Below, piece after piece: positions 1 through 31,339 of a DNA stretch of 64,000 bases (within the stretch, counting starts at the first letter, position 1; each line of letters opens with the position of its first letter). The notes below the pieces were generated by a model. The model was not told where the DNA came from. It was given only the letters and a program-made list of their open reading frames with translations, and made no database searches. The translations under genes were made by a program, and so were the position numbers. This DNA comes from an uncultured Candidatus Saccharibacteria bacterium (GTDB lineage: Bacteria > Patescibacteriota > Minisyncoccia > Phycocordibacterales > UBA9973), in assembly GCA_964634365.1 (NCBI GenBank), contig CAZWJU010000002.1:32069-96068 (forward strand), read 5' to 3'.

Positions 1-1323
1 ATACAAACCAAAGAAAAAGAATACTTGCCATCTGATAACGCTATTATAATCAGTGTAGAAAGTGGAATGTCTAGTCAGTTTAGTAAAGATTTAGCGAAAG
101 CAGTAAAGAGTGGCATTGATAAAAAAATTATTAAAGGGCTAGCTCCAGTATTGGCTCCTCTTGGATACTTAAATACTAAACACGAAGTTCGTGGTGAAAA
201 TTACATAATCAAAGACCCTGAACGATTTGAACTTATTAAGAGAGCGTGGAATATGATGCTAACTGGAGAATATACAATTCCTAAACTTCTAAAAATAATG
301 AATGATGATTGGGGTATGCGTACACGAACCACACGACATCGTGGAGGTGGAAAAATAAATAAAAGTACTATGTATAATATCTTAACCAATATATTTTATA
401 CTGGTCTTTTTATCTACAATGGAGAAGTTGGGAATGGTAAACACGAACCAATGATCACAATGGATGAGTTTGATATTGTTCAAAAGATGTTAGGGAGATA
501 TGGGAAACCAAGAGCCAAGAGTCATATATTTACGTACACTGGCACAATGATATGTGGTGAATGCGGTAGCTCTGTTACAGCTTGTACAAAGACGAAACTA
601 GTAAAAACTAAAAATGAATTAAAGGACTATACATTTTACTATTGTTCACACCGAAAGAAAGGAACAGAAAATTGCTCTCAAAGAGCTTTCATTCCATTGA
701 AAAATATGGAAGATATGATAAAGGAAGAAATAGACAAGTATACGATTTCAGAAAAGTTTAGAGATTGGGCATTAAGAATACTTGCAGAAGAACACTCTGA
801 TGAAGTTCGAGAGAGGGAGCTAATTTATAAAACACAATTAGGTGATATTGAGGCATCTCAAAGAGAGTTAGATAATTTAATAACAATGCGTATGCGTGAT
901 CTCATAAATGATGAACAATACGGTTCAAGGAAAAACGAGTTAACCGAGAAAATTGCAATCTTAAAGCAGAAAATCAATGAAACTGAAAGCCGAGCATTGA
1001 ACTGGTTACAATATACCGAACAAGTATTCAACTTTGCACAAGTAGCAAAAACCAAGTTTGAAGACCCTGAAACTACGATAGAAGATAAGAAAAGTATATT
1101 TACTGCACTTGGTTGGAACTATATAGTAAAAGACCAAAAACTCTTTATTTTACCGAATGATTGGCTAGAGCCAATAGATAAGAAGCGAAAAGCTGTAGAA
1201 AGTGAAATAAATCGGTTGGAACTGGAAAAAACCTTTGCTATAAAAGGACAAAACACCCGTTTAGGGGTGCTTTGTCCAATACTGCGCGACCGACCGGACT
1301 TGAACCGGCAACCTCCCGCGTGA
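1..1323 (+). CDS. Large serine recombinase (integrase-type), 5'-truncated at window edge; recombinase domain, zinc beta-ribbon and coiled-coil present
   Basis: Frame 1 is open from nt 1; the ORF track begins at TTG 25. It has a CX2C...YYCSH...C zinc-ribbon (CGECGSS...YYCSHRKKGTENC) followed by a long heptad-rich coiled-coil, as in C-terminal halves of large serine recombinases. The catalytic Ser domain would lie upstream of the window. The last ~13 codons overlap tRNA-Asp. Confidence 0.7.
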   Translation: MQTKEKEYLPSDNAIIISVESGMSSQFSKDLAKAVKSGIDKKIIKGLAPVLAPLGYLNTKHEVRGENYIIKDPERFELIKRAWNMMLTGEYTIPKLLKIMNDDWGMRTRTTRHRGGGKINKSTMYNILTNIFYTGLFIYNGEVGNGKHEPMITMDEFDIVQKMLGRYGKPRAKSHIFTYTGTMICGECGSSVTACTKTKLVKTKNELKDYTFYYCSHRKKGTENCSQRAFIPLKNMEDMIKEEIDKYTISEKFRDWALRILAEEHSDEVRERELIYKTQLGDIEASQRELDNLITMRMRDLINDEQYGSRKNELTEKIAILKQKINETESRALNWLQYTEQVFNFAQVAKTKFEDPETTIEDKKSIFTALGWNYIVKDQKLFILPNDWLEPIDKKRKAVESEINRLELEKTFAIKGQNTRLGVLCPILRDRPDLNRQPPA

Positions 1324-1358
1324 CAGGCGGGTGCTCTAACCAGTTGAGCTACGATCGC
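1285..1358 (-). tRNA. tRNA-Asp (anticodon GUC)
   Basis: Reverse complement folds as a cloverleaf: acceptor GCGATCG/CGGTCGC (one G-U pair), D-arm AGCTCAACTGGTTAGAGC, anticodon stem CCCGC/GCGGG with loop CTGTCAC, T-arm GCCGGTTCAAGTCCGGT, discriminator G; CCA not encoded. Confidence 0.85.
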
Positions 1359-1393
1359 ATATTATTTTCCGAACACAAATACAAATGTCCGTG

Positions 1394-1466
1394 TGTCGGA
1401 GGTGGGGATCGAACCCACGACCCCAGGCTTATGAGTCCTGTGCTCTACCGACTGAGCTACCCCGAC
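1394..1466 (-). tRNA. tRNA with CAU anticodon (Met elongator, or Ile2 if lysidinylated)
   Basis: Reverse complement: GTCGGGG-TA-GCTCAGTCGGTAGAGC...loop CTCATAA...GTGGGTTCGATCCCCAC-CTCCGAC-A. The anticodon stem has one A-G mismatch at 31-39. Confidence 0.7.
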
Positions 1467-1495
1467 AAAAAGCAAACTTCTTTGCTTTTTGTCGG
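1462..1495. repeat. Perfect 15-bp inverted repeat (CCGACAAAAAGCAAA cttc TTTGCTTTTTGTCGG) overlapping the 5' end of tRNA-CAT
   Basis: Read directly; palindromic hairpin whose left arm begins inside the tRNA acceptor stem. Confidence 0.6.
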
Positions 1496-1608
1496 TGGGT
1501 ATACCACCTGGTAAAGCAGTGCGATGTTGTGAGGCTTTTGCCGAACCATCGCTATCAAACAAGCTTGCCATTATTCGACATAGAGACATTGTGTCGCTTG
1601 CCGAAGTG

Positions 1609-1680
1609 TTGCGGGGGGACGATTCGAACGTCCGTCTTCAGGTTATGAGCCTGATGAGATAACCACTTCTCTACCCCGCT
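1609..1680 (-). tRNA. Second tRNA with CAU anticodon (initiator-like or Ile2/Met; A1-A72 mismatch or 6-bp acceptor)
   Basis: Reverse complement: (A)GCGGGG-TA-GAGA AGTGGTTA TCTC A TCAGG CTCATAA CCTGA AGAC GGACG TTCGAAT CGTCC CCCCGC A. The anticodon stem is perfect, the T-arm is canonical, and pairing at 1-72 is unusual. Confidence 0.65.
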
Positions 1681-1771
1681 ATATAAAAAATCGCCTTTTC
1701 TAAGACAAAGGTATTGTACCTAAATATGGTATTTTTGCAACCTTATAAATTATGACAAATACATGGTTGTA

Positions 1772-5577: not shown

Positions 5578-7584
5578 TTATTTTACCATTTTCAAGAATT
5601 CAGACTCCTCTATTACAGAAACCCCAAGCTTCTTCGCTTCATTGAGTTTTGATCCAGCACTCTCCCCTGCAAGCACGAAGCCTGTCGCTTTTGATACAGA
5701 TCCAGAAACTTTACCACCATTTTCAATAATTATTTTCTTTGCTTCTTCGCGAGAAAGGGTCGGGAGTGTTCCTGTTAGAACAAAAGTTTTGCCTGTAAAC
5801 TTCCCTACTGCTTTTTTATATTCTTTTGGTTTTACACCATTATCCAATAGTTTTTGTATAAACTTCTGATGATATGAGTCAGACAAATATTCCAAAATAC
5901 TCTCGGTCACAGCTGGGCCAATATTTTCTATCTCGTCCAAATCAGATTCTTTTGCATTTAAAAACTTCTTGAGTGTGCCGAAGTGTCCTGCCAAGTCCCG
6001 TGCAGTTTCTTCTCCAACATGGATTATCCCAAGCGATACAATAAATCTATCAAGTGTCGGGTTTCTCCTCTCTTTTATATTACTCACAATATTACTTGCA
6101 GACTTATCTCCAAATCTCTCAAGCCCTGACAAGTCAGCTTCGGTGAGAATGAAGAGATCTGCTCCGTCAGTTATCAATCCCTCGTCCTGAAGTCGCTCTA
6201 TTATCTTTGGACCAACAGTATAGATATCGAACGCATTTACGAAGTGAACAAGACCCCGGGAACTCTTGGCCTCACAGCGTTTGTTTGTACAGTAAAACGC
6301 CACACTTTTTCCACCCTGACCTTCTTTCTTCTCTACTTCCCCTCCACAGATAGGACACACACTCGGCATCTTAAAACTTTTTTCTTTTCCTGTGCGTAGA
6401 CTTTTCAATACTTCTACAACTTCGGGTATAACATCCCCTGCTTTTTGTATAACAACAGTGTCACCTATTTTTATATCGAGTCTTTCTATCTGATCCATGT
6501 TGTGAAGAGTCGACTTGGAAACAGTCGAACCAGAAACAAGAGTCGGTTCAAAATGTGCAAGTGGTGTCAAAACTCCTGTGCGTCCCACCTGAACTGTTAT
6601 GTCGAGAACCTTTGTGGTGGCGCGTTCTGCTGGATATTTAAATGCACACATATAGCGTGGGGCTTTGCCGACTATACCTAATCTCTCTTGCAAATCTGTC
6701 TCATCAATAGATATAACTATACCGTCTGTTCCAAAAGGTAATTTTTCTCTTATCTTTTTTATTTCTTCGATAAAAGATTCTACTTCTTTTAAGTTTTTGC
6801 ATTTCTTCTCATGAACTGAAACTGGAAAACCGAGCGAGACAAGTAGTCTATGTTCGTCTGAATGTTTTTTTATATTTTTTTCATAATCTGCCGATAGTTC
6901 TGCTATGTCATATGCAAAAAAAGATAGGTGACGCTCCTTTACTACACTAGGATCAAGCTGACGAACTGAACCAGCAGAAGCGTTGCGAGTGTTTGCAAAC
7001 TTGGGTAGGCCGAGCTTTTCATTTTGTTTGTTTAACTTTTCGAGAACGTCTTTTGACATAACTATCTCTCCGCGAACTTCTATCTTTTTAGGAGAATCTT
7101 TTGGGAGAGTAAGTGGTATGTCAGTTATCATTTTTATATTTTCTGTTATGTTTTCTCCGACAAATCCATCTCCTCGAGTTCCTCCATAAACAAGTTTTCC
7201 ATTTTCATAAAGCAAAGTAACAGCTAGACCGTCGAACTTTAGCTCGGCAAAATATGTGGGAGTTTTTCCAGGAATAAGTTTTAGTGCCCTTTTTTCCCAA
7301 TCAGCGAGTTCTTCATAAGAAAAAACATCTGCTAGTGAGGTCATGCGAGAGCTGTGAGTTATCTTTTCAAACTTGGGAAGAGGAGCGCCTGCTACACGAG
7401 AAAGCGGGTCATCTTTTACACGAAACTCTGGGAATTTGTCTTCTAGAAGTCTAAGCTCTCTGGTTAGAGAATCATAAACATCGTCAGTTACAGAAGGGTC
7501 GTTTTCTACATGATAGCGAAAACGGAGACTTTGTATCTCCTCGCGCAACTTTTCTATTCTGTTTTTTGCTTCTTTTTTATCCAT
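5578..7584 (-). CDS. ligA: NAD-dependent DNA ligase
   Basis: Adenylation-domain motifs, a CPICGGEV zinc finger, HhH region and C-terminal BRCT. The likely start is the ATG at 7584 (MDKKEAK...), because the ORF-track extension to 7605 runs into a terminator hairpin. Confidence 0.9.
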   Translation of the reverse strand: MDKKEAKNRIEKLREEIQSLRFRYHVENDPSVTDDVYDSLTRELRLLEDKFPEFRVKDDPLSRVAGAPLPKFEKITHSSRMTSLADVFSYEELADWEKRALKLIPGKTPTYFAELKFDGLAVTLLYENGKLVYGGTRGDGFVGENITENIKMITDIPLTLPKDSPKKIEVRGEIVMSKDVLEKLNKQNEKLGLPKFANTRNASAGSVRQLDPSVVKERHLSFFAYDIAELSADYEKNIKKHSDEHRLLVSLGFPVSVHEKKCKNLKEVESFIEEIKKIREKLPFGTDGIVISIDETDLQERLGIVGKAPRYMCAFKYPAERATTKVLDITVQVGRTGVLTPLAHFEPTLVSGSTVSKSTLHNMDQIERLDIKIGDTVVIQKAGDVIPEVVEVLKSLRTGKEKSFKMPSVCPICGGEVEKKEGQGGKSVAFYCTNKRCEAKSSRGLVHFVNAFDIYTVGPKIIERLQDEGLITDGADLFILTEADLSGLERFGDKSASNIVSNIKERRNPTLDRFIVSLGIIHVGEETARDLAGHFGTLKKFLNAKESDLDEIENIGPAVTESILEYLSDSYHQKFIQKLLDNGVKPKEYKKAVGKFTGKTFVLTGTLPTLSREEAKKIIIENGGKVSGSVSKATGFVLAGESAGSKLNEAKKLGVSVIEESEFLKMVK

Positions 7585-7679: not shown

Positions 7680-8279
7680 TTACAGAGCGCCGGTGCCGGT
7701 ACCATCTCCTTCAGCACCTCCTTCTGGTGGAGGAACCTCGCCTCCACCCGCATCACCTCCTCCGTCTACTGCAACAGCCACTGGGTTTGGATATTTTACT
7801 TCGAGCAATCTTTCGACAATGCGATTTGTATCGAAAGAATCAAGCTGTGCACAATCTATATTGTAACCCTGAGATATTATACGTGTGTAGCTAGTACCGT
7901 CTATATCAAAATTTTTATTTACCTCAACAGTCGCACAACTACGAGGAGACAGATCAAATTCAAATGTAAACAAGGTTGGAGAAATATCTTCAAAATTAGC
8001 GACCATACCATCTCTACACTCTGGGACTATTGGAGAAACTGGATTGAAAGCATTTTGTTTTAAATCATAATACAAAGCACATTCACTACCAGCGTCTGCT
8101 GCATAAAAAGCTAAGTTAGATTCTTTTGCTGAAACAGTAAGCTCGGTTTCTTTTAAGGCTATATTGAATATACCTGTTGCAAGCACTAGTACGATAACAG
8201 ATATCAAAACTGTAAAAAGCACAACAAAACCATCTTGCTTGCTACCTGTCTTTTTTATTTGTTCGATAAATATTTTCAT
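7680..8279 (-). CDS. Pilus minor component, PilX-like (N-terminal hydrophobic helix, Gly/Pro/Glu-rich C-terminus)
   Basis: N-terminal QDGFVVLFTVLISVIVLVLATG resembles a pilin-like helix without canonical Glu5; last gene of the pseudopilin block. Confidence 0.45.
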   Translation of the reverse strand: MKIFIEQIKKTGSKQDGFVVLFTVLISVIVLVLATGIFNIALKETELTVSAKESNLAFYAADAGSECALYYDLKQNAFNPVSPIVPECRDGMVANFEDISPTLFTFEFDLSPRSCATVEVNKNFDIDGTSYTRIISQGYNIDCAQLDSFDTNRIVERLLEVKYPNPVAVAVDGGGDAGGGEVPPPEGGAEGDGTGTGAL

Positions 8280-8282
8280 ATT

Positions 8283-8894
8283 TTATATTGCACTTACATG
8301 TGGCTGCCAATCCATCAAAATATTTTGATAAGTAATAGTCTGCTCTGACAAACCTTCGTACCAAGTTACTTTACTAGTAACCAAAACATCGTCTGCTAAA
8401 GTTTCATTAATCGGCAAAACAAATATTGTTCTAGTAAAAGGTGAGGCTACTGATCCACTAGGAAGATCACATGCATCACTCTGGTCGTATCCAAAATATC
8501 CAGAAGTCTCTGAGTACGGAATATTGCAAGTAGACCCAGTACATGCGCATACATCTAAAGTAGACGGGTCTATGTTGCAACCAGCTGTCCCACTACAAGT
8601 ATTAATATTTGATAAGAAAATATCCCATCCGGCACCAGAAGGGTCGGATATAACTGAAGTATCTCTAATATTACGAACTGTCTCTACACCCTCTTGGGCT
8701 AGATACGAAGCTGTAAGTCTAGACTTTGCTAGAGTTGTGTTTGATACACCACCACTTGCGACAACTATCAGAAAAACAATCGATGAAGAAAATATAGCCA
8801 AGGCCACAAGAGTTTCTACTATTGTAAAACCAGAATTTTTACTTGCTATTTTATTTATTTTAAAAAGTTTGTTTTGCATATATTTAAAAATCAA
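8283..8894 (-). CDS. Type IV pseudopilin (prepilin-type N-terminal cleavage/methylation domain)
   Basis: SGFTIVETLVALAIF class III signal (G/FTxxE). Confidence 0.7.
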   Translation of the reverse strand: MIFKYMQNKLFKINKIASKNSGFTIVETLVALAIFSSSIVFLIVVASGGVSNTTLAKSRLTASYLAQEGVETVRNIRDTSVISDPSGAGWDIFLSNINTCSGTAGCNIDPSTLDVCACTGSTCNIPYSETSGYFGYDQSDACDLPSGSVASPFTRTIFVLPINETLADDVLVTSKVTWYEGLSEQTITYQNILMDWQPHVSAI

Positions 8895-11632: not shown

Positions 11633-12088
11633 TTAAGAACAAGTAGTTCCAGATGCTGCCAAGAAGTTACTAGTAACTATAGCCGCACCAGTGTTATCTA
11701 CACAGAAAGACACACCTGTGTTAAGAGGAACCTGAGCTGCCCAACCTGTTGATGAGTCGTGGCATACTGGAACAGTCGCAGTTGCTACAGTTGCATCAGC
11801 TGCTGTAAATGTTGAAGTAGAACCATTCTTAGCTTTCCATGCTGCAAGTACACTGTCTCCAATAACGTTTGTTCCTGTCGCTGCACAAACCAGATCGTAT
11901 GTTCCTGCTGTATCATAGAATAATTCTGCCTCTGCACGAGCATTAGACAAGTTTGCCTTAACAGCAGCATCTGCACCCTTTGTACGTGCTGTGTTAAGTG
12001 AAGCCAAAACTACTGAAGCTAGGATACCGATGATTGCGATAACAACCAAGAGTTCTATAAGTGTGAAACCTTTGTTTTTTTGTGACAT
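11633..12088 (-). CDS. Type IV pilin, probable major pilin (PilA-like)
   Basis: KGFTLIELLVVIAIIGILASV signal; 151 aa; followed by a very strong terminator, consistent with high expression. Confidence 0.75.
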   Translation of the reverse strand: MSQKNKGFTLIELLVVIAIIGILASVVLASLNTARTKGADAAVKANLSNARAEAELFYDTAGTYDLVCAATGTNVIGDSVLAAWKAKNGSTSTFTAADATVATATVPVCHDSSTGWAAQVPLNTGVSFCVDNTGAAIVTSNFLAASGTTCS

Positions 12089-12283
12089 ATAAAATAAAAC
12101 TTTTTTTAAAATTTGTCGCTTTCATTAACCGATTGCGACGCGACCTATTTATAATACCTAAAGTATACCACGAAAGCGTTTTTACTAAGTAAACCCCCTA
12201 GGTGTGGATAAATAAGTGTTATTTGTGGCCTTATTTTATTATAAAATTAAAGATATTTTCTTTAACAAAAAAATAACGAAAAA

Positions 12284-15193
12284 ATGAAAAAGATTACTCT
12301 AACATTTTTACTGATACTTTTGATAGTATCTGCATGCCTATCACAAACAGTGGTAGATGGATTTCAATATATTCTAGGCGACAAAGGTATCGACAGTATT
12401 ACAAATACAGAATACCAAGTTGCAGAACAAATTAATCCAGCAACATACACCGTCGTTGGCTATGCTGATATTGAGATTAATGAAATGTATCCATATTTCA
12501 TAAGCTCAACACCAAACAGAGGGTCGGTGACTATATCAGACAGACATAACGACAGTGATGATGGCGACTGGTCCCCTGGTGGAATACATCCGGGGGAAGA
12601 TTGGAACTATGGAAGTGTGGGTGAAGATATTGGAATGCCTATATACGCTACAGCAAATGGAGTTATACACGATTTTCGAATGCTGTCATATCCAATCAAT
12701 AAGTCTGGGTGGTGCATGGTAATAAAACACTTCATGCCCGATGGTTCATATGTGTATAGTTTTTATATGCATATAACAAATATCGCAAATACCGACGGCG
12801 CAATATGTCTAAATGAAAGTGATTTTGGTTTTTCTATAGGCGAAGAAGTAACAAGAGGTCAAATGATTGCACGAATAGGAAATGTAACTAGTTTTGGTAG
12901 TCATTGCCATTTTGAAATCAGAAGCTTGTATGACCAAGAGTTGGACCTGTGGCCAAATGGACCAGGTGGGCGTTATCCTGAATATTCCAATTCATACAAA
13001 TATGCAATTGATATAGAAAATGTAGCTCTTGCTTACTATGAAATGCAATTAGATGGAATTTTAGATGCATCAGATTTTATTGACACACATAGACCGAGTG
13101 AATTTATTGAAACTGAACCAGTCTGTATAGACCCAGAGATTGAATGGCAAAATACTATTGGAGGAATAAGCAATGATGAACTGTATGTGGTAAAAAAAGT
13201 TTCTAATGGCTACATATTGGGAGGTAATTCTAATTCTGATATATCTATAGACAAAATAGAAATATCAAATGGCGGGATTGATTACTGGATAATAAAGACA
13301 GATGATACGGGTATGATTCAATGGCAGAATACTATTGGAGGAAGTGGCGATGATAGATTATGTTATATTAGCCAGACTACAGATAATGGTTATATATTAG
13401 GAGGATGCTCAAATTCTGGTATTTCAGGAGATAAAAATGAATCATCTTATGGTGCACAAGATTTATGGATAGTAAAAATAGACTCTATCGGGAATATACA
13501 GTGGCAGAATACTATTGGAGGAAGTGGCGATGATATATTGTCGTCTATAAAACAAACCGTAGACGGAGGTTATATACTAGGAAGTTATTCAAATTCTAAT
13601 ATATCAGGAGATAAAGCTGAAGCTAGTTTGGGCGGGATTGATTACTGGATACTTAAATTAGATTTTTCAGGTAATGTACAGTGGCAGAATACTATTGGAG
13701 GAAGTGATGGAGATTACTTGTACGATATTATTCAAACATCCGATAATCAGTATTTACTTGGTGGCTATTCAAATTCTAGTATTTCGGTAGATAAAACTGA
13801 AGCAACCAATGGCAATAATGATTATTGGATAATCAAGATAGATGATTTTGGTGATATACAATGGCAAAATACTATTGGAGGAAGTGGCGATGATATATTA
13901 TTTTCAATACAAGAAATACCAAGTAGCGGTTATTTAATAGGTGGTAAATCTGGATCTAATATTTCAGGAGATAAAAGTGAAAATAGTCTAGGATACCTTG
14001 ATTACTGGATACTTAAATTAGATTTTTCAGGTAATGTACAGTGGCAGAATACTATTGGAGGAAATTTAGACGACAATTTAACAAGTATTTCAAAAACTGG
14101 CGATAATGGAGTGCTCATTTCTGGCTACTCAAATTCTGGTATTTCAGGAGATAAAAATGAAGCTCTAATTGGAATATATGATGGGTGGATAGTAAAAATA
14201 GACTCTATCGGGAATATACAGTGGCAGAATACTATTGGAGGAACCGGATATGATTTTTTATATTGCACTCAAGAAATATCCAGTGGTGAATATATTCTGG
14301 GATTCACTTCAGGATCTACTATTTCCGGAGATAAAGATGAAGATAATCTGGGAAACTATGATTATTGGGTAATTAAATTATTTGGTACCTGTAACCCATC
14401 CACTGAAATTTGCAATACTTTCGATGACGATTGTGATGGACTTATCGACGAAGACCTGGAACCATCTATATCAATCGAAGCATTGGGGTCTACAACCTTC
14501 TGCCAAGGAAGTAGTGTCGTGCTTACAGCAACCCATACCGGAACATCAGTACAGTGGTATAAAAATGGATCAATAATTTCTGGCGCAACTTACGATTTTA
14601 TAACCGTATCTGCGACCGGAAACTATACATGCATAAGCTCCAATGAATGTGCAAGTACAACTTCAAACTCTGTAATTGTAAACGTAAATAAAAATCCATC
14701 TGCAAATATAACAGCGGGCGGTCCAACTAGTTTCTGTTTTGGAGGAAGTGTCACACTTACAGCAAACACTGGGGCTTCACTATCCTACCAATGGTACAAA
14801 GGTGCAACAGCCATCGCTGGAGCAACTAGTATAAATTACGTAGCTACAACTTCTGGAAACTACAAATGTAGAGTAACCAAAACTGCCACAGGGTGTTACA
14901 AGAATTCAAATACTATAACAGTATCTGTAACCTGCCGAGAAGGTGTATCGATAGATCAAATACTTAGCCCAAATCCAGCGAGCAATATCTTGTATGTGGA
15001 TTTGATGGATTTTGAAAGTGACGCTTTGGATATATACATGATCAACAATATAGGTCAAAAAGTCCTTGCCAAAAAAACCGAAGGAGGACACCTGATTGAT
15101 CTTGATATATCTTCCCTGCCAAAAGGGCTGTACTCATTTTTCATAATGAAAGAAGGTTTTATTATTTACTCAGAAAAATTTATCGTCGAGTAG
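12284..15193 (+). CDS. Secreted multidomain protein: signal peptide, M23 (LytM-type) metallopeptidase domain, seven tandem ~60-aa SBBP beta-propeller repeats, CxxxDDDCDG motif, three Ig-like repeats and a T9SS-type C-terminal sorting domain
   Basis: M23 motifs HPGED and GSHCHFE (HxxxD and HxH). Seven repeats of ..IQWQNTIGGSGDD...YILGG.SNS.ISGDK.E...G..DYWI.K.D. FC.GGSVTLTA...YQWYKNG...GNYTC repeats. C-terminus SPNPASNILYVDL...IYMINNIGQKV...IDLDISSLPKGLYSF matches the Por-secretion CTD pattern. Confidence 0.65.
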   Translation: MKKITLTFLLILLIVSACLSQTVVDGFQYILGDKGIDSITNTEYQVAEQINPATYTVVGYADIEINEMYPYFISSTPNRGSVTISDRHNDSDDGDWSPGGIHPGEDWNYGSVGEDIGMPIYATANGVIHDFRMLSYPINKSGWCMVIKHFMPDGSYVYSFYMHITNIANTDGAICLNESDFGFSIGEEVTRGQMIARIGNVTSFGSHCHFEIRSLYDQELDLWPNGPGGRYPEYSNSYKYAIDIENVALAYYEMQLDGILDASDFIDTHRPSEFIETEPVCIDPEIEWQNTIGGISNDELYVVKKVSNGYILGGNSNSDISIDKIEISNGGIDYWIIKTDDTGMIQWQNTIGGSGDDRLCYISQTTDNGYILGGCSNSGISGDKNESSYGAQDLWIVKIDSIGNIQWQNTIGGSGDDILSSIKQTVDGGYILGSYSNSNISGDKAEASLGGIDYWILKLDFSGNVQWQNTIGGSDGDYLYDIIQTSDNQYLLGGYSNSSISVDKTEATNGNNDYWIIKIDDFGDIQWQNTIGGSGDDILFSIQEIPSSGYLIGGKSGSNISGDKSENSLGYLDYWILKLDFSGNVQWQNTIGGNLDDNLTSISKTGDNGVLISGYSNSGISGDKNEALIGIYDGWIVKIDSIGNIQWQNTIGGTGYDFLYCTQEISSGEYILGFTSGSTISGDKDEDNLGNYDYWVIKLFGTCNPSTEICNTFDDDCDGLIDEDLEPSISIEALGSTTFCQGSSVVLTATHTGTSVQWYKNGSIISGATYDFITVSATGNYTCISSNECASTTSNSVIVNVNKNPSANITAGGPTSFCFGGSVTLTANTGASLSYQWYKGATAIAGATSINYVATTSGNYKCRVTKTATGCYKNSNTITVSVTCREGVSIDQILSPNPASNILYVDLMDFESDALDIYMINNIGQKVLAKKTEGGHLIDLDISSLPKGLYSFFIMKEGFIIYSEKFIVE
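13138..14400 (+). repeat. Seven tandem 180-bp intragenic repeats (propeller blades) with stretches of 57-66 nt of perfect nucleotide identity between non-adjacent units
   Basis: 13638-13704 is identical to 13998-14064, and 13467-13524 is identical to 14187-14244; read directly. Confidence 0.8.
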
Positions 15194-17116: not shown

Positions 17117-18175
17117 TTAAAGTAATCGCTCTAAAGCTTTTGGGTTAAGTGAATATAGGTAAGCGTTGTCCATAGTGATCTGTCCTGCACGCACAAGCTC
17201 AACAAGAGAGCGGTTCATATCTATCATGCCATGTTCATATCCAGTTTCTATTACTACATCTATCTCGTGAGTTCGCTTTTCACGAATTAGATTTTGTACT
17301 GCATTGTTGTTCACAAGAAGCTCATAAGCTGGGACGAGTCCACCAGTTATACAAGGTATAAGTCTCTGAGAAAATATTCCAATCAAACTCGAAGCAAGTT
17401 GTATACGAATCTGATCTTGCTGACCAGGTGGAAATGCGTCGATTATACGATCAATAGTCTGAGAAGCATTGTTTGTGTGTAGAGTAGAAAAAACCAAGTG
17501 ACCAGTCTCAGCAGCTGTAACAGCAGTAGATATAGTTTCGGCGTTGCGCATCTCACCTATCAGTATTACATTTACATCTTCACGGAATACAGATTTTAAA
17601 GCTGAGTTGAAATCTTTTGTATCTATACCAACTTCACGTTGATCTATAATAGAGTGTTTTGGTGTATACATATATTCTATCGGGTCTTCGATAGTAACTA
17701 TGTGTTCTGCGCGTTCGTTGTTTATGAGATTCACCATAGAAGCGAGTGTTGTAGACTTACCCTGACCAACCGGTCCTACTACTAGGAAGAATCCTTGTTT
17801 CTTTCTGCAAAAAGTTTCGATGATTGGTGGAAGTCTAAGTTCAGCAAGAGTTTTAACTTGTGGTATAAGTCTTAGAGCAATCCCTGCTATACCTTTTGAA
17901 AAGAAAGCGTTACCGCGAAGTCTCGCCTCCCCTTTGAAGTCGTATGAAAAATCAATCTCCTGATCTTCTAAAAATTTCTTGTATTTAACGTCATCCAATA
18001 ACTCTTTTAGGATTCCTAGTGAGTCTTCTTTTGTGTATACACTATGTTTAACTAAAAAGTTCAATTGTCCTGAAACACGTATCGCAGGATAACGCATCCC
18101 AGCAATATGAAGATCGGACCCGCCTTCGCGGATTAGGGTAGTCAATAAATCTTCGAGTTCTTTTGCGTAATCCAT
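17117..18175 (-). CDS. pilT: Type IV pilus retraction ATPase
   Basis: 352 aa; Walker A GPVGQGKST; PilT-length hexameric ATPase. Confidence 0.85.
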   Translation of the reverse strand: MDYAKELEDLLTTLIREGGSDLHIAGMRYPAIRVSGQLNFLVKHSVYTKEDSLGILKELLDDVKYKKFLEDQEIDFSYDFKGEARLRGNAFFSKGIAGIALRLIPQVKTLAELRLPPIIETFCRKKQGFFLVVGPVGQGKSTTLASMVNLINNERAEHIVTIEDPIEYMYTPKHSIIDQREVGIDTKDFNSALKSVFREDVNVILIGEMRNAETISTAVTAAETGHLVFSTLHTNNASQTIDRIIDAFPPGQQDQIRIQLASSLIGIFSQRLIPCITGGLVPAYELLVNNNAVQNLIREKRTHEIDVVIETGYEHGMIDMNRSLVELVRAGQITMDNAYLYSLNPKALERLL

Positions 18176-24255: not shown

Positions 24256-24342
24256 GGAGACGTGTCTGAGTGGTTTAAGGTACCTCCTTGCTAAGGAGGC
24301 GAGCTGTAAAAAGCTCCGTGAGTTCGAATCTCACCGTCTCCG
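24256..24342 (+). tRNA. tRNA-Ser (anticodon GCU), type II with long variable arm
   Basis: GGAGACG...anticodon loop TTGCTAA...variable arm CGAGCTGTAAAAAGCTCCG...T-arm GTGAGTTCGAATCTCAC...CGTCTCC-G. Confidence 0.85.
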
Positions 24343-24362
24343 CCGTTTCCGTTTCAATATAT

Positions 24363-24449
24363 GGAGGATTGGGTGAGTGGTTGAAACCAGCAGTTTACTA
24401 AACTGCCGACCTGTAAAAAGGTCCGTGAGTTCGAATCTCACATCCTCCG
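24363..24449 (+). tRNA. Type II Ser-like tRNA with unusual anticodon loop TTACTAA (apparent anticodon ACU)
   Basis: GGAGGAT acceptor, 3-bp D-stem, anticodon stem GCAGT/ACTGC, long variable arm, T-arm identical to tRNA-Ser(GCU), discriminator G. Confidence 0.6.
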
Positions 24450-24453
24450 CAAA
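24432..24453 (+). repeat. att-like direct repeat copy 1 (tRNA 3' end, cgaatctcacatcctccgcaaa)
   Basis: 22-nt sequence repeated exactly at 24573-24594 and with one deletion at 26275-26293. An inverted 11-mer TGCGGAGGATG lies at 24473-24483. Confidence 0.7.
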
Positions 24454-31257: not shown

Positions 31258-31331
31258 CCACCCTTAGCTCAGTTGGTTAGAGCACAGAGCTTATACCTCT
31301 GGGGTCCTTGGTTCGAATCCAAGAGGGTGGA
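31258..31331 (+). tRNA. tRNA-Ile with UAU anticodon
   Basis: CCACCCT-TA-GCTC AGTTGGTTA GAGC A CAGAG CTTATAC CTCTG GGGTC CTTGG TTCGAAT CCAAG AGGGTGG A; perfect cloverleaf. Confidence 0.8.
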
Positions 31332-31339
31332 CATGACAG

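Follow-up and report, generated by a model that had tools for sequence, protein, structure and literature searches.

Why should the reading frame of a recombinase end inside a tRNA gene that is transcribed towards it? The question is posed by the left edge of a 64,000-nucleotide stretch of DNA (hereafter the window; contig CAZWJU010000002.1, positions 32,069 to 96,068, of assembly GCA_964634365.1) from an uncultured Candidatus Saccharibacteria bacterium, where the gene of a large serine recombinase (LSR), entering from the left, terminates within a minus-strand tRNA-Asp gene. The answer favoured here, with a probability of roughly 0.85, is that nucleotides 1-1288 constitute the right end (attR) of a genomic island that was integrated at the 3' end of tRNA-Asp(GUC) by its own LSR. 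All functional statements about the element are read from sequence.

The reading frame and the tRNA gene in which it ends

The plus-strand open reading frame (ORF; frame 1) is open from nucleotide 1 and extends over 440 codons to a TGA at 1321-1323. A first-pass annotation, made from the nucleotides alone, had assigned it to the LSRs, and the assignment holds: the Recombinase domain (PF07508) and the zinc ribbon (PF13408) both exceed their gathering scores, and a Resolvase domain is present in full-length homologues that are 85-89% identical to the window protein. The features of the coding region are as follows.

1-1323, plus strand: LSR, C-terminal 440 codons and stop (Pfam domains; 89% identical to homologue P0001)
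217-492, plus strand: Recombinase domain, PF07508 (amino acids 73-164; E 1.8e-8; 35 bits, gathering score 21.1)
538-732, plus strand: zinc beta-ribbon Zn_ribbon_recom, PF13408 (amino acids 180-244; E 5.6e-9; 36.7 bits, gathering score 25.3)
751-1062, plus strand: long helices read as the serine-integrase coiled-coil motif (AlphaFold model of P0001, mapped as residue minus 133)

The 440 residues matched 391 homologues, nearly all of about 535-575 amino acids and nearly all adding an N-terminal Resolvase domain; a full-length relative measures about 549 amino acids. The closest are P0001 (573 amino acids with Resolvase, Recombinase and zinc-ribbon domains; 89% identity) and P0003 (85%), whose N-termini bear the YARKSSEGEDRQ motif of the Resolvase domain (PF00239). 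Since P0001 aligns with all 440 residues without a frameshift or stop, the apparent truncation of the ORF is merely the edge of the window, and the N-terminal ~110-133 amino acids, the catalytic domain among them, would, to judge from these relatives, lie beyond it. The zinc-ribbon cysteines are kept across the family alignment, and the AlphaFold model of P0001 (predicted TM score, pTM, 0.39) places helices at 384-397, 399-431 and 437-487. Among solved structures the sole relative by sequence is the A118 integrase (4KIS, E 4e-6), identity to any LSR of the phage collection is below 25%, and the best NCBIfam matches, XisF and CcrC, fall far under their cutoffs.

ARAGORN and Rfam agreed on three minus-strand tRNAs to the right of the recombinase domains:

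1284/1285-1358, minus strand: host tRNA-Asp(GUC), intact (69 bits, full length)
1393-1466, minus strand: host tRNA-CAU, elongator Met-like, flank outside the element (66.7 bits)
1608-1680, minus strand: host tRNA-CAU, initiator-like, flank outside the element (62.4 bits)

The last 39-40 nucleotides of the ORF, 12 sense codons (…LRDRPDLNRQPPA) and the stop, lie over the 3' end of tRNA-Asp, in good agreement with the ~13 codons antisense to the 3' half of this tRNA that had been noticed at first. In the opposite sense it covers the 3' strand of the acceptor stem, the T arm and a portion of the anticodon arm, its TGA falling in the anticodon loop, and the last 11 residues of the recombinase, DRPDLNRQPPA, are encoded by the acceptor strand and T arm (about 1289-1310). 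The two CAU-anticodon tRNAs that had also been pointed out are ordinary host neighbours, probably an initiator and an elongator Met tRNA. The gene at 1608-1680 has a 1:72 mismatch (its first pair being flagged as non-standard), an A11:U24 pair and the 3' end ...CCCCGCAA, and on these textbook identity elements it is presumed to be the initiator. The neighbour of tRNA-Asp at 1393-1466 is kept in the related locus L009, and a more diverged tRNA-CAU occupies that position in L008.

A tRNA-CAU cluster accompanies tRNA-Asp in L008, L009 and L004 too. The pair is inverted in L004 relative to the window (11786-11850 and 11876-12152) and is preceded there by a partial duplicate of the 5' half of the initiator-like tRNA, which another rearrangement or element may have left as a scar. 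L009 carries an insertion of ~2.7 kb (11740-14500; ORFs of 355 and 325 amino acids) between tRNA-Asp and the tRNA-CAU pair that is absent from the window and L008.

tRNA targets across the recombinase family

A scan of GTDB species representatives yielded at least 510 loci with relatives of the window LSR. Eighty of these, fetched with 10-kb flanks, and L004 formed a survey set of 81 loci, in which ORFs were extended to their stop and tRNAs were called; five loci were cut by a contig end. The ORF ends inside, or runs through, a convergent tRNA gene in 67 of the 76 judgeable loci, and a recurrence of this kind means that the overlap in the window is not due to chance. The targets were tRNA-Asp (26 loci), tRNA-His (20), tRNA-Trp (7), tRNA-Asn (4), tRNA-Ser (4), tRNA-Gln (3), tRNA-Ile(UAU) (2) and tRNA-Glu (1), and they group by recombinase clade in a neighbour-joining tree that was built without the tail. 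The first-pass annotation proposed the tRNA as the attachment site in the window, and this holds; across the family the target follows the recombinase clade. The common C-terminal motif, LRxRxDLN, is the antisense translation of an acceptor stem and a GTTCRA T loop. Among the remaining judgeable loci, five have a different, 'native' tail and no tRNA, and four were not assignable.

The hosts of the family are mostly Patescibacteria. L030 (10001-11686 of the fetched sequence, from the 5.8-Mb chromosome of an Ilyomonas sp.) and L032 are family members of 48-49% identity with an intact native tail; both belong to Bacteroidota, so that the family is not confined to Patescibacteria.

Some further observations concern other tRNA targets. 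The window itself has a tRNA-Ile(UAU) at 31258-31332 (plus strand), the tRNA that the distant family members L066 and L085 occupy in other genomes. A serine recombinase of 529 amino acids in L092 (7575-9175) ends inside tRNA-Thr(CGU), and the contig of its sister assembly L091 breaks just past the same tRNA (17207-17423). Group I introns were found in L081 (11627-11903, minus strand), L021 (11723-12084, minus strand) and L074 (13710-13935, plus strand). In L081 and L021 the intron starts at the very point at which the recombinase tail passes out of the tRNA-Asp 3' half; the target tRNA appears to carry the intron in its anticodon loop, which accounts for its having been missed by ARAGORN.

The two junctions and the divided C-terminal tail

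The far end of the element was located by comparing islands of close relatives. Those of L008 and L004 share ~80% nucleotide identity from the tRNA leftwards, and their last common block, at the far left, is an 83-nucleotide segment that reads in frame L-R-G-L-V-D-E-V-G-T-A-I-R…. The far junctions of L008, L004, L017 and L074 each consist of GCGCG followed by in-frame LRGLVDEVGTA, 9.0-11.1 kb upstream of the recombinase stop, and junction alignment revealed GCGCG as the only sequence common to attL and attR in these four loci. Measured from core to core, the islands are 11,097 bp (L008), 10,739 bp (L004), 8,981 bp (L017) and 9,136 bp (L074) long. The same native tail is continuous with the ORF in L011, L016, L030, L032 and the metagenome locus L107, none of which abuts a tRNA at the ORF end; the LRGLVDEVGTA motif was found neither in the rest of the 81 loci nor in the window.

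The three site forms can accordingly be written side by side. attR reads …GGGGTGCTTTGTCCAATACT-GCGCG-ACCGACCGGACTTGAACC, the last part being tRNA antisense; attL reads host-GCGCG-GCTTAGTGGATGAAGTGGGAACTGC…; and attP, intact in L011, L016, L030, L032 and L107, is P arm-GCGCG-P' arm within one ORF, the P' form being GCGCG followed by a sequence like ..TAGTGGAYGARGTGRGAAC, which encodes LR-GLVDEVGT. An imperfect inverted repeat, CTTtgTCCAaTA / TAgTGGAtgAAG, can be made out in the reconstructed attP when the alignment is read by eye. The window holds the following parts of attR.

1259-1283, no strand assigned: P arm, the element-side half-site, which includes CTTTGTCCAATA at 1270-1281, one arm of that imperfect inverted repeat (alignment of attR, attL and intact attP; symmetry read by eye)
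1283-1288, no strand assigned: common core TGCGCG (GCGCG at 1284-1288), the presumed crossover region (junction alignment)
about 1289-1310, minus strand: B' arm, formed by the tRNA-Asp acceptor 3' strand and T arm (tRNA-Asp calls)

On the tRNA strand, the core comprises the last four nucleotides of tRNA-Asp and one or two beyond them, and because of this position the tRNA is left untouched by integration. The core is also present in the intact attP of L011 and L016, and the unoccupied tRNA-Asp of a distant relative, L093, has the same TGCGCG core and B' arm in another chromosomal context. Judged from these sequences, attP is intragenic in the recombinase and integration would exchange the C-terminal tail of the protein; it is the position of attP within the gene, and not incidental read-through, that makes the ORF end in the tRNA. 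In L017 and L074, the host DNA outside attL forms a hairpin followed by a T run that directly abuts the core, which reads like the displaced native terminator of the tRNA, and the genes beyond it are ordinary hydrolase and NUDIX genes.

A shared core of 5-6 bp without a long direct repeat is normal for serine recombinases. The first-pass annotation had expected a second copy of 15-45 nucleotides of the tRNA 3' segment at the far end, and in the relatives checked it is absent: BLAST-short searches of the junctions found no duplicate of the tRNA-Asp 3' end of at least 12 nucleotides within 10 kb in L002/L008 or L004, nor any in the window, and the junctions share only the 5-6 bp (T)GCGCG. As serine recombinases share only a short core, the lack of a duplicated tRNA segment does not count against integration here.

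The same junctions bear on the idea that another enzyme, such as a tyrosine integrase, carries out integration at the tRNA and that the LSR is a passenger or resolvase. tRNA targeting is typical of tyrosine integrases (PMC7192596), and a gene of the Phage_integrase family lies directly upstream of the LSR in L017 (8673-9788), L014, L023 and L079. Against this, a short core without a long repeat fits serine and not tyrosine integrases, in every locus both attP arms are either within the LSR ORF or directly beside it, and the choice of tRNA follows the LSR tree. A tyrosine recombinase gene is absent from 77 of the 81 loci, including the closest relatives L008, L009 and L004, whose 396-amino-acid neighbour protein has no similarity to the tyrosine recombinase of those four loci. 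With such a gene in only 4 of 81 loci, and the LSR as the sole recombinase common to them, the tyrosine recombinase was rejected as the true integrase, and integration by any other enzyme is very improbable.

Cargo and signs of movement

The cargo of the relatives, 9-11 kb, lies upstream (to the left) of the recombinase, in line with the early view that the element extends leftwards out of the window, although the window's own left end is placed by analogy with them. The islands of the closest relatives encode a type III methyltransferase (PADLOC, E 2e-73), a restriction subunit (E 2e-17) and proteins of unknown function, and no clear set of phage structural genes was found in them; across the family the cargo varies widely. 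Besides the LSR, the only widely conserved island genes are those of a DUF5659 protein (52 of 81 loci) and an adjacent protein of ~60 amino acids (59 of 81), which are located 1-4.7 kb upstream of the LSR (for example, at 8250-8513 and 8518-8700 of L008) and are candidate regulators or directionality factors. The window's own island presumably resembles those of its relatives, with type III restriction-modification cargo, and may still be mobile.

Were the window element a prophage and not a small island of defence or cargo genes, this would accord with the classical role of LSRs as phage integrases, with the wide variation of cargo in the family and with the fact that the cargo of the window is unseen. 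The closest relatives, however, whose LSR genes are 80-85% identical in nucleotide sequence, have islands of 10.7-11.1 kb with type III genes and no clear phage structural set. The relatives in IMG/VR are distant (at most 39% identity), as are those in the phage collection (<25%), and a phage origin of the close clade is rejected on this ground; a prophage in the window is improbable.

Signs of movement come from comparing the element with its surroundings. The window and L008 are 84.8% identical in nucleotides across the LSR and 64.7% in the adjacent gatA; between L008 and L009 the values are 78.7% across the element and 65.5% in gatA. In L004, an element of ~80% identity is found in a differently arranged chromosomal context. 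At the syntenic position of the closest host relative, L088, a flank protein of which is 84% identical to that of the window, tRNA cluster and recombinase are both missing. These comparisons speak against a chromosomal invertase or resolvase that acts on the tRNA cluster, with the tRNA-Asp overlap as mere conserved synteny. The inversion of the tRNA-CAU pair in L004 relative to the window, L008 and L009 would fit such an enzyme, but the detached part of the C-terminal tail stands in direct orientation at a distance of 9-11 kb, the clades have different targets, the divergence of element and host is discordant, and L088 has neither component at the corresponding place. Of all the alternatives, this one is the hardest to credit.

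Several points weigh against the preferred reading of nucleotides 1-1288 as the attR of an LSR-integrated island. The window holds the right junction alone, with the left end, cargo and catalytic domain unseen. The apparent dyad centre is a palindromic GC, and every dinucleotide within GCGCG is palindromic; those serine integrases that have been studied depend for their polarity on a central dinucleotide that is asymmetric. Of the 16 Asp-clade loci that have a full 10-kb left flank, 4 show attL within that distance, and the islands of the other 12 must extend past 10 kb or carry a P' arm that has diverged. The AlphaFold alignment is shallow (22 sequences; pTM 0.39, as above). Finally, no empty attB was found at an orthologous locus. 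The first-pass annotation had looked to relatives lacking the insertion, and the comparison, run through flank proteins, gave no orthologous empty site and no conserved synteny: among homologues of the right-flank protein of the window, L088-L090 are without the tRNA cluster at that place and L091 and L092 are arranged differently, and the left-flank protein of L002 has only three homologues, with no nearby tRNA, no synteny and no empty site. JGI metagenomes, scanned for exact matches to the reconstructed attB of L008, gave 0. A search of metagenomes for an intact attP returned two short loci, which confirm the native tail and are too short to display a circular form, and no circular form of the close clade was recovered in the metagenome scans.

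Some of these points would also suit a junction that is an old, fixed remnant, the window copy being no longer mobile, for example through a decayed attL or an inactive N-terminus. The left end is missing from the window, the 12 of 16 Asp-clade loci mentioned above show no attL within 10 kb, and such junctions do exist, as in L016, where the last ~90 nucleotides of an LSR gene stand by a tRNA-Asp, and in L106, which has a tail fragment only. Yet all 440 visible codons are intact, and an identity to P0001 of 89% in amino acids against 84.8% in DNA indicates purifying selection; the element is, moreover, far less diverged than the adjoining host genes. A dead remnant is thus considered unlikely.

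L016 deserves a separate remark. An intact recombinase gene with attP (93-1772) lies 4 kb from a tRNA-Asp that retains the remnant of a second recombinase (5830-5988), namely the last ~90 nucleotides of an older, diverged LSR gene, and the two hairpin copies differ, apparently by compensating changes. The locus looks like a tandem or nested array of two islands. The notion that L011 and L016 represent excised copies of an L008-type island was discarded, as only the LSR and small upstream ORFs are shared and the cargo differs.

The LOOT RNA motif (Rfam RF03000) was also encountered inside the islands, on the minus strand, at 6391-6520 of L008, 6596-6717 of L074, 7010-7128 of L021 and 6507-6628 of L081. 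With a model derived from these four Rfam hits, 13 of the 81 loci proved to have it, in each case 1.7-7 kb upstream of the recombinase and on the other strand; none was found in the window. In 6 of the 13 loci, the RNA ends 57-65 nucleotides upstream of a DNA methyltransferase gene on the same strand, and it may be a leader of restriction-modification mod genes.

A terminator-like hairpin and a tail predicted to be disordered

Integration at this position would separate tRNA-Asp from the host DNA that follows it, and the end of the recombinase gene contains two further features, on opposite strands.

1236-1277 (stem-loop 1277 to 1246), minus strand: intrinsic-terminator-like hairpin and T tract, supplied by the element, antisense in the ORF (13 pairs)
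1222-1320, plus strand: coding region of the predicted disordered C-terminal tail (AlphaFold, P0001 residues 541-573)

The hairpin has 13 pairs, 7 of them G-C, and the tail TTTTATAGCA; it is followed by TTTTAT (about 1245 to 1236). Read in the tRNA sense, it comes directly after tRNA-Asp; no other terminator-like site in the first 3 kb is as strong, and most of the surveyed relatives have a hairpin comparable to it. Among 21 Asp-clade loci, five consecutive stem pairs are altered in both strands in 9-11 sequences (CACCC/GGGTG, GGAGG/CCTCC and GACGC/GCGTC are examples). The peptide encoded across the hairpin varies freely (QNTRLGV versus QKEAFAS), and as the pairs covary while the peptide varies, it is the RNA or DNA structure, and not the protein, that is under selection.

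In the AlphaFold model of P0001, order extends as far as residue 540, and residues 541-573 have a per-residue confidence (pLDDT) below 50 and no secondary structure. The corresponding segment of the window takes in hairpin, P arm and core as well as the overlap with the tRNA. With only 22 sequences aligned, this prediction of disorder is taken as support and not as proof.

A perfect 11-bp hairpin with T runs on both sides is located at 2684-2708, between convergent genes for proteins of 305 and 231 amino acids, and is a candidate bidirectional terminator.

Proposed course of integration

In the free element, an attP of ~50 bp would lie within the last ~25 codons of the recombinase gene, which would read ...CPILR-GLVDEVGTAI...stop. 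The LSR would pair attP with an attB made up of the 3' end of tRNA-Asp and the host DNA following it, and crossover would occur within (T)GCGCG; we infer both the catalysis by the LSR and the exact crossover dinucleotide. After integration, tRNA-Asp would remain whole, and the P' arm with the codons of the native tail, 18-30 residues, would have moved to attL, 9-11 kb away. The recombinase ORF would now run into the antisense strand of the tRNA and gain the 11-residue tail before the TGA in the anticodon loop. The host terminator would be shifted to attL, its place being taken by the antisense hairpin and T tract of the element, and excision would restore the native tail.

A more far-reaching interpretation, put forward tentatively, is that the family represents an undescribed lineage of serine integrases, retargeted among at least eight tRNA species, with an intragenic attP, a replacement terminator and an exchange of tails that may record the state of integration or tune directionality or activity.

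Relation to known systems

Serine integrases are prized tools of genome engineering, and most of their natural targets are believed to be genes for proteins. The window family is like the phage-type LSRs (A118/LI integrase, phiC31, Bxb1, SPbeta) in the order of its Resolvase, Recombinase and zinc-ribbon domains, the last with a putative inserted coiled coil, and in its short att sites with a minimal common core and no long direct repeats. It is unlike them in that it targets tRNA genes, at their 3' end, and not genes for proteins, attP lies in its own coding sequence, the apparent dyad centre is a palindromic GC and the hosts are mostly Patescibacteria.

The closest functional parallels are found among tyrosine recombinases. 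The attB of myxophage Mx8 overlaps the 3' ends of tRNA-Asp genes. Its integrase, IntP, has attP in the 3' coding sequence of int, and integration creates a new 3' end and an altered but still active integrase (PMC6070905). Both systems thus place attP within the integrase coding sequence and change the C-terminus on integration; IntP, however, belongs to the tyrosine recombinase superfamily, uses a longer core and is encoded by a phage, so that the resemblance is one of function and not of membership. The archaeal SSV-type integrases likewise integrate at tRNA genes. These 'suicidal' enzymes have the recombination site inside the ORF and a highly variable target specificity (PMC7253208). They are tyrosine recombinases whose gene is split into two inactive pseudogenes, whereas in the window family only a predicted disordered tail of 18-30 residues would be exchanged and the folded domains would stay together.

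That an LSR directed at a tRNA would itself be unusual, as stated at first, agrees with the literature: in the TIGER survey (Mageeney et al. 2020), tRNA use by serine integrases had not been reported and would need proof, and the 14 of 297 serine-integrase (S-Int) islands that were placed at t(m)RNA genes are unverified (PMC7192596). Among the tycheposons of Prochlorococcus, 27 of 937 tRNA-adjacent elements have an LSR, with no analysis of att sites (bioRxiv 2020.12.28.424599), and tRNA is not mentioned by Durrant et al. 2022. The TIGER cases and tycheposons resemble the present one as computational hints of serine integrases at t(m)RNA genes; they are sporadic, are flagged as in need of proof and come with no account of att-site anatomy, in contrast to the at least 510 relatives here, which form one coherent clade with tRNA targets that are clade-specific and with attP inside the gene. 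The literature searched, open-access papers and bioRxiv preprints, yielded no description of this recombinase clade of Patescibacteria. The locus in the window is, by itself, an ordinary island boundary, and the novelty lies at the level of the family, in the tRNA class of targets and the intragenic attP among LSRs.

A clade of this size with switches among eight tRNA targets is a natural data set on the evolution of att-site specificity, and an intragenic attP together with an element-borne terminator is an example of the dense packing of integration signals in an island. Restriction-modification systems travel among Patescibacteria with these elements, which, their target sites being conserved and essential, could serve as chromosomal integration vectors for these bacteria.

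Other tRNA genes in the window

Farther to the right, the window contains tandem type II tRNA-Ser genes at 24256-24344 and 24363-24450 (plus strand). The second has the loop TTACTAA and hence the anticodon ACU, which is unusual beside a normal GCU copy.

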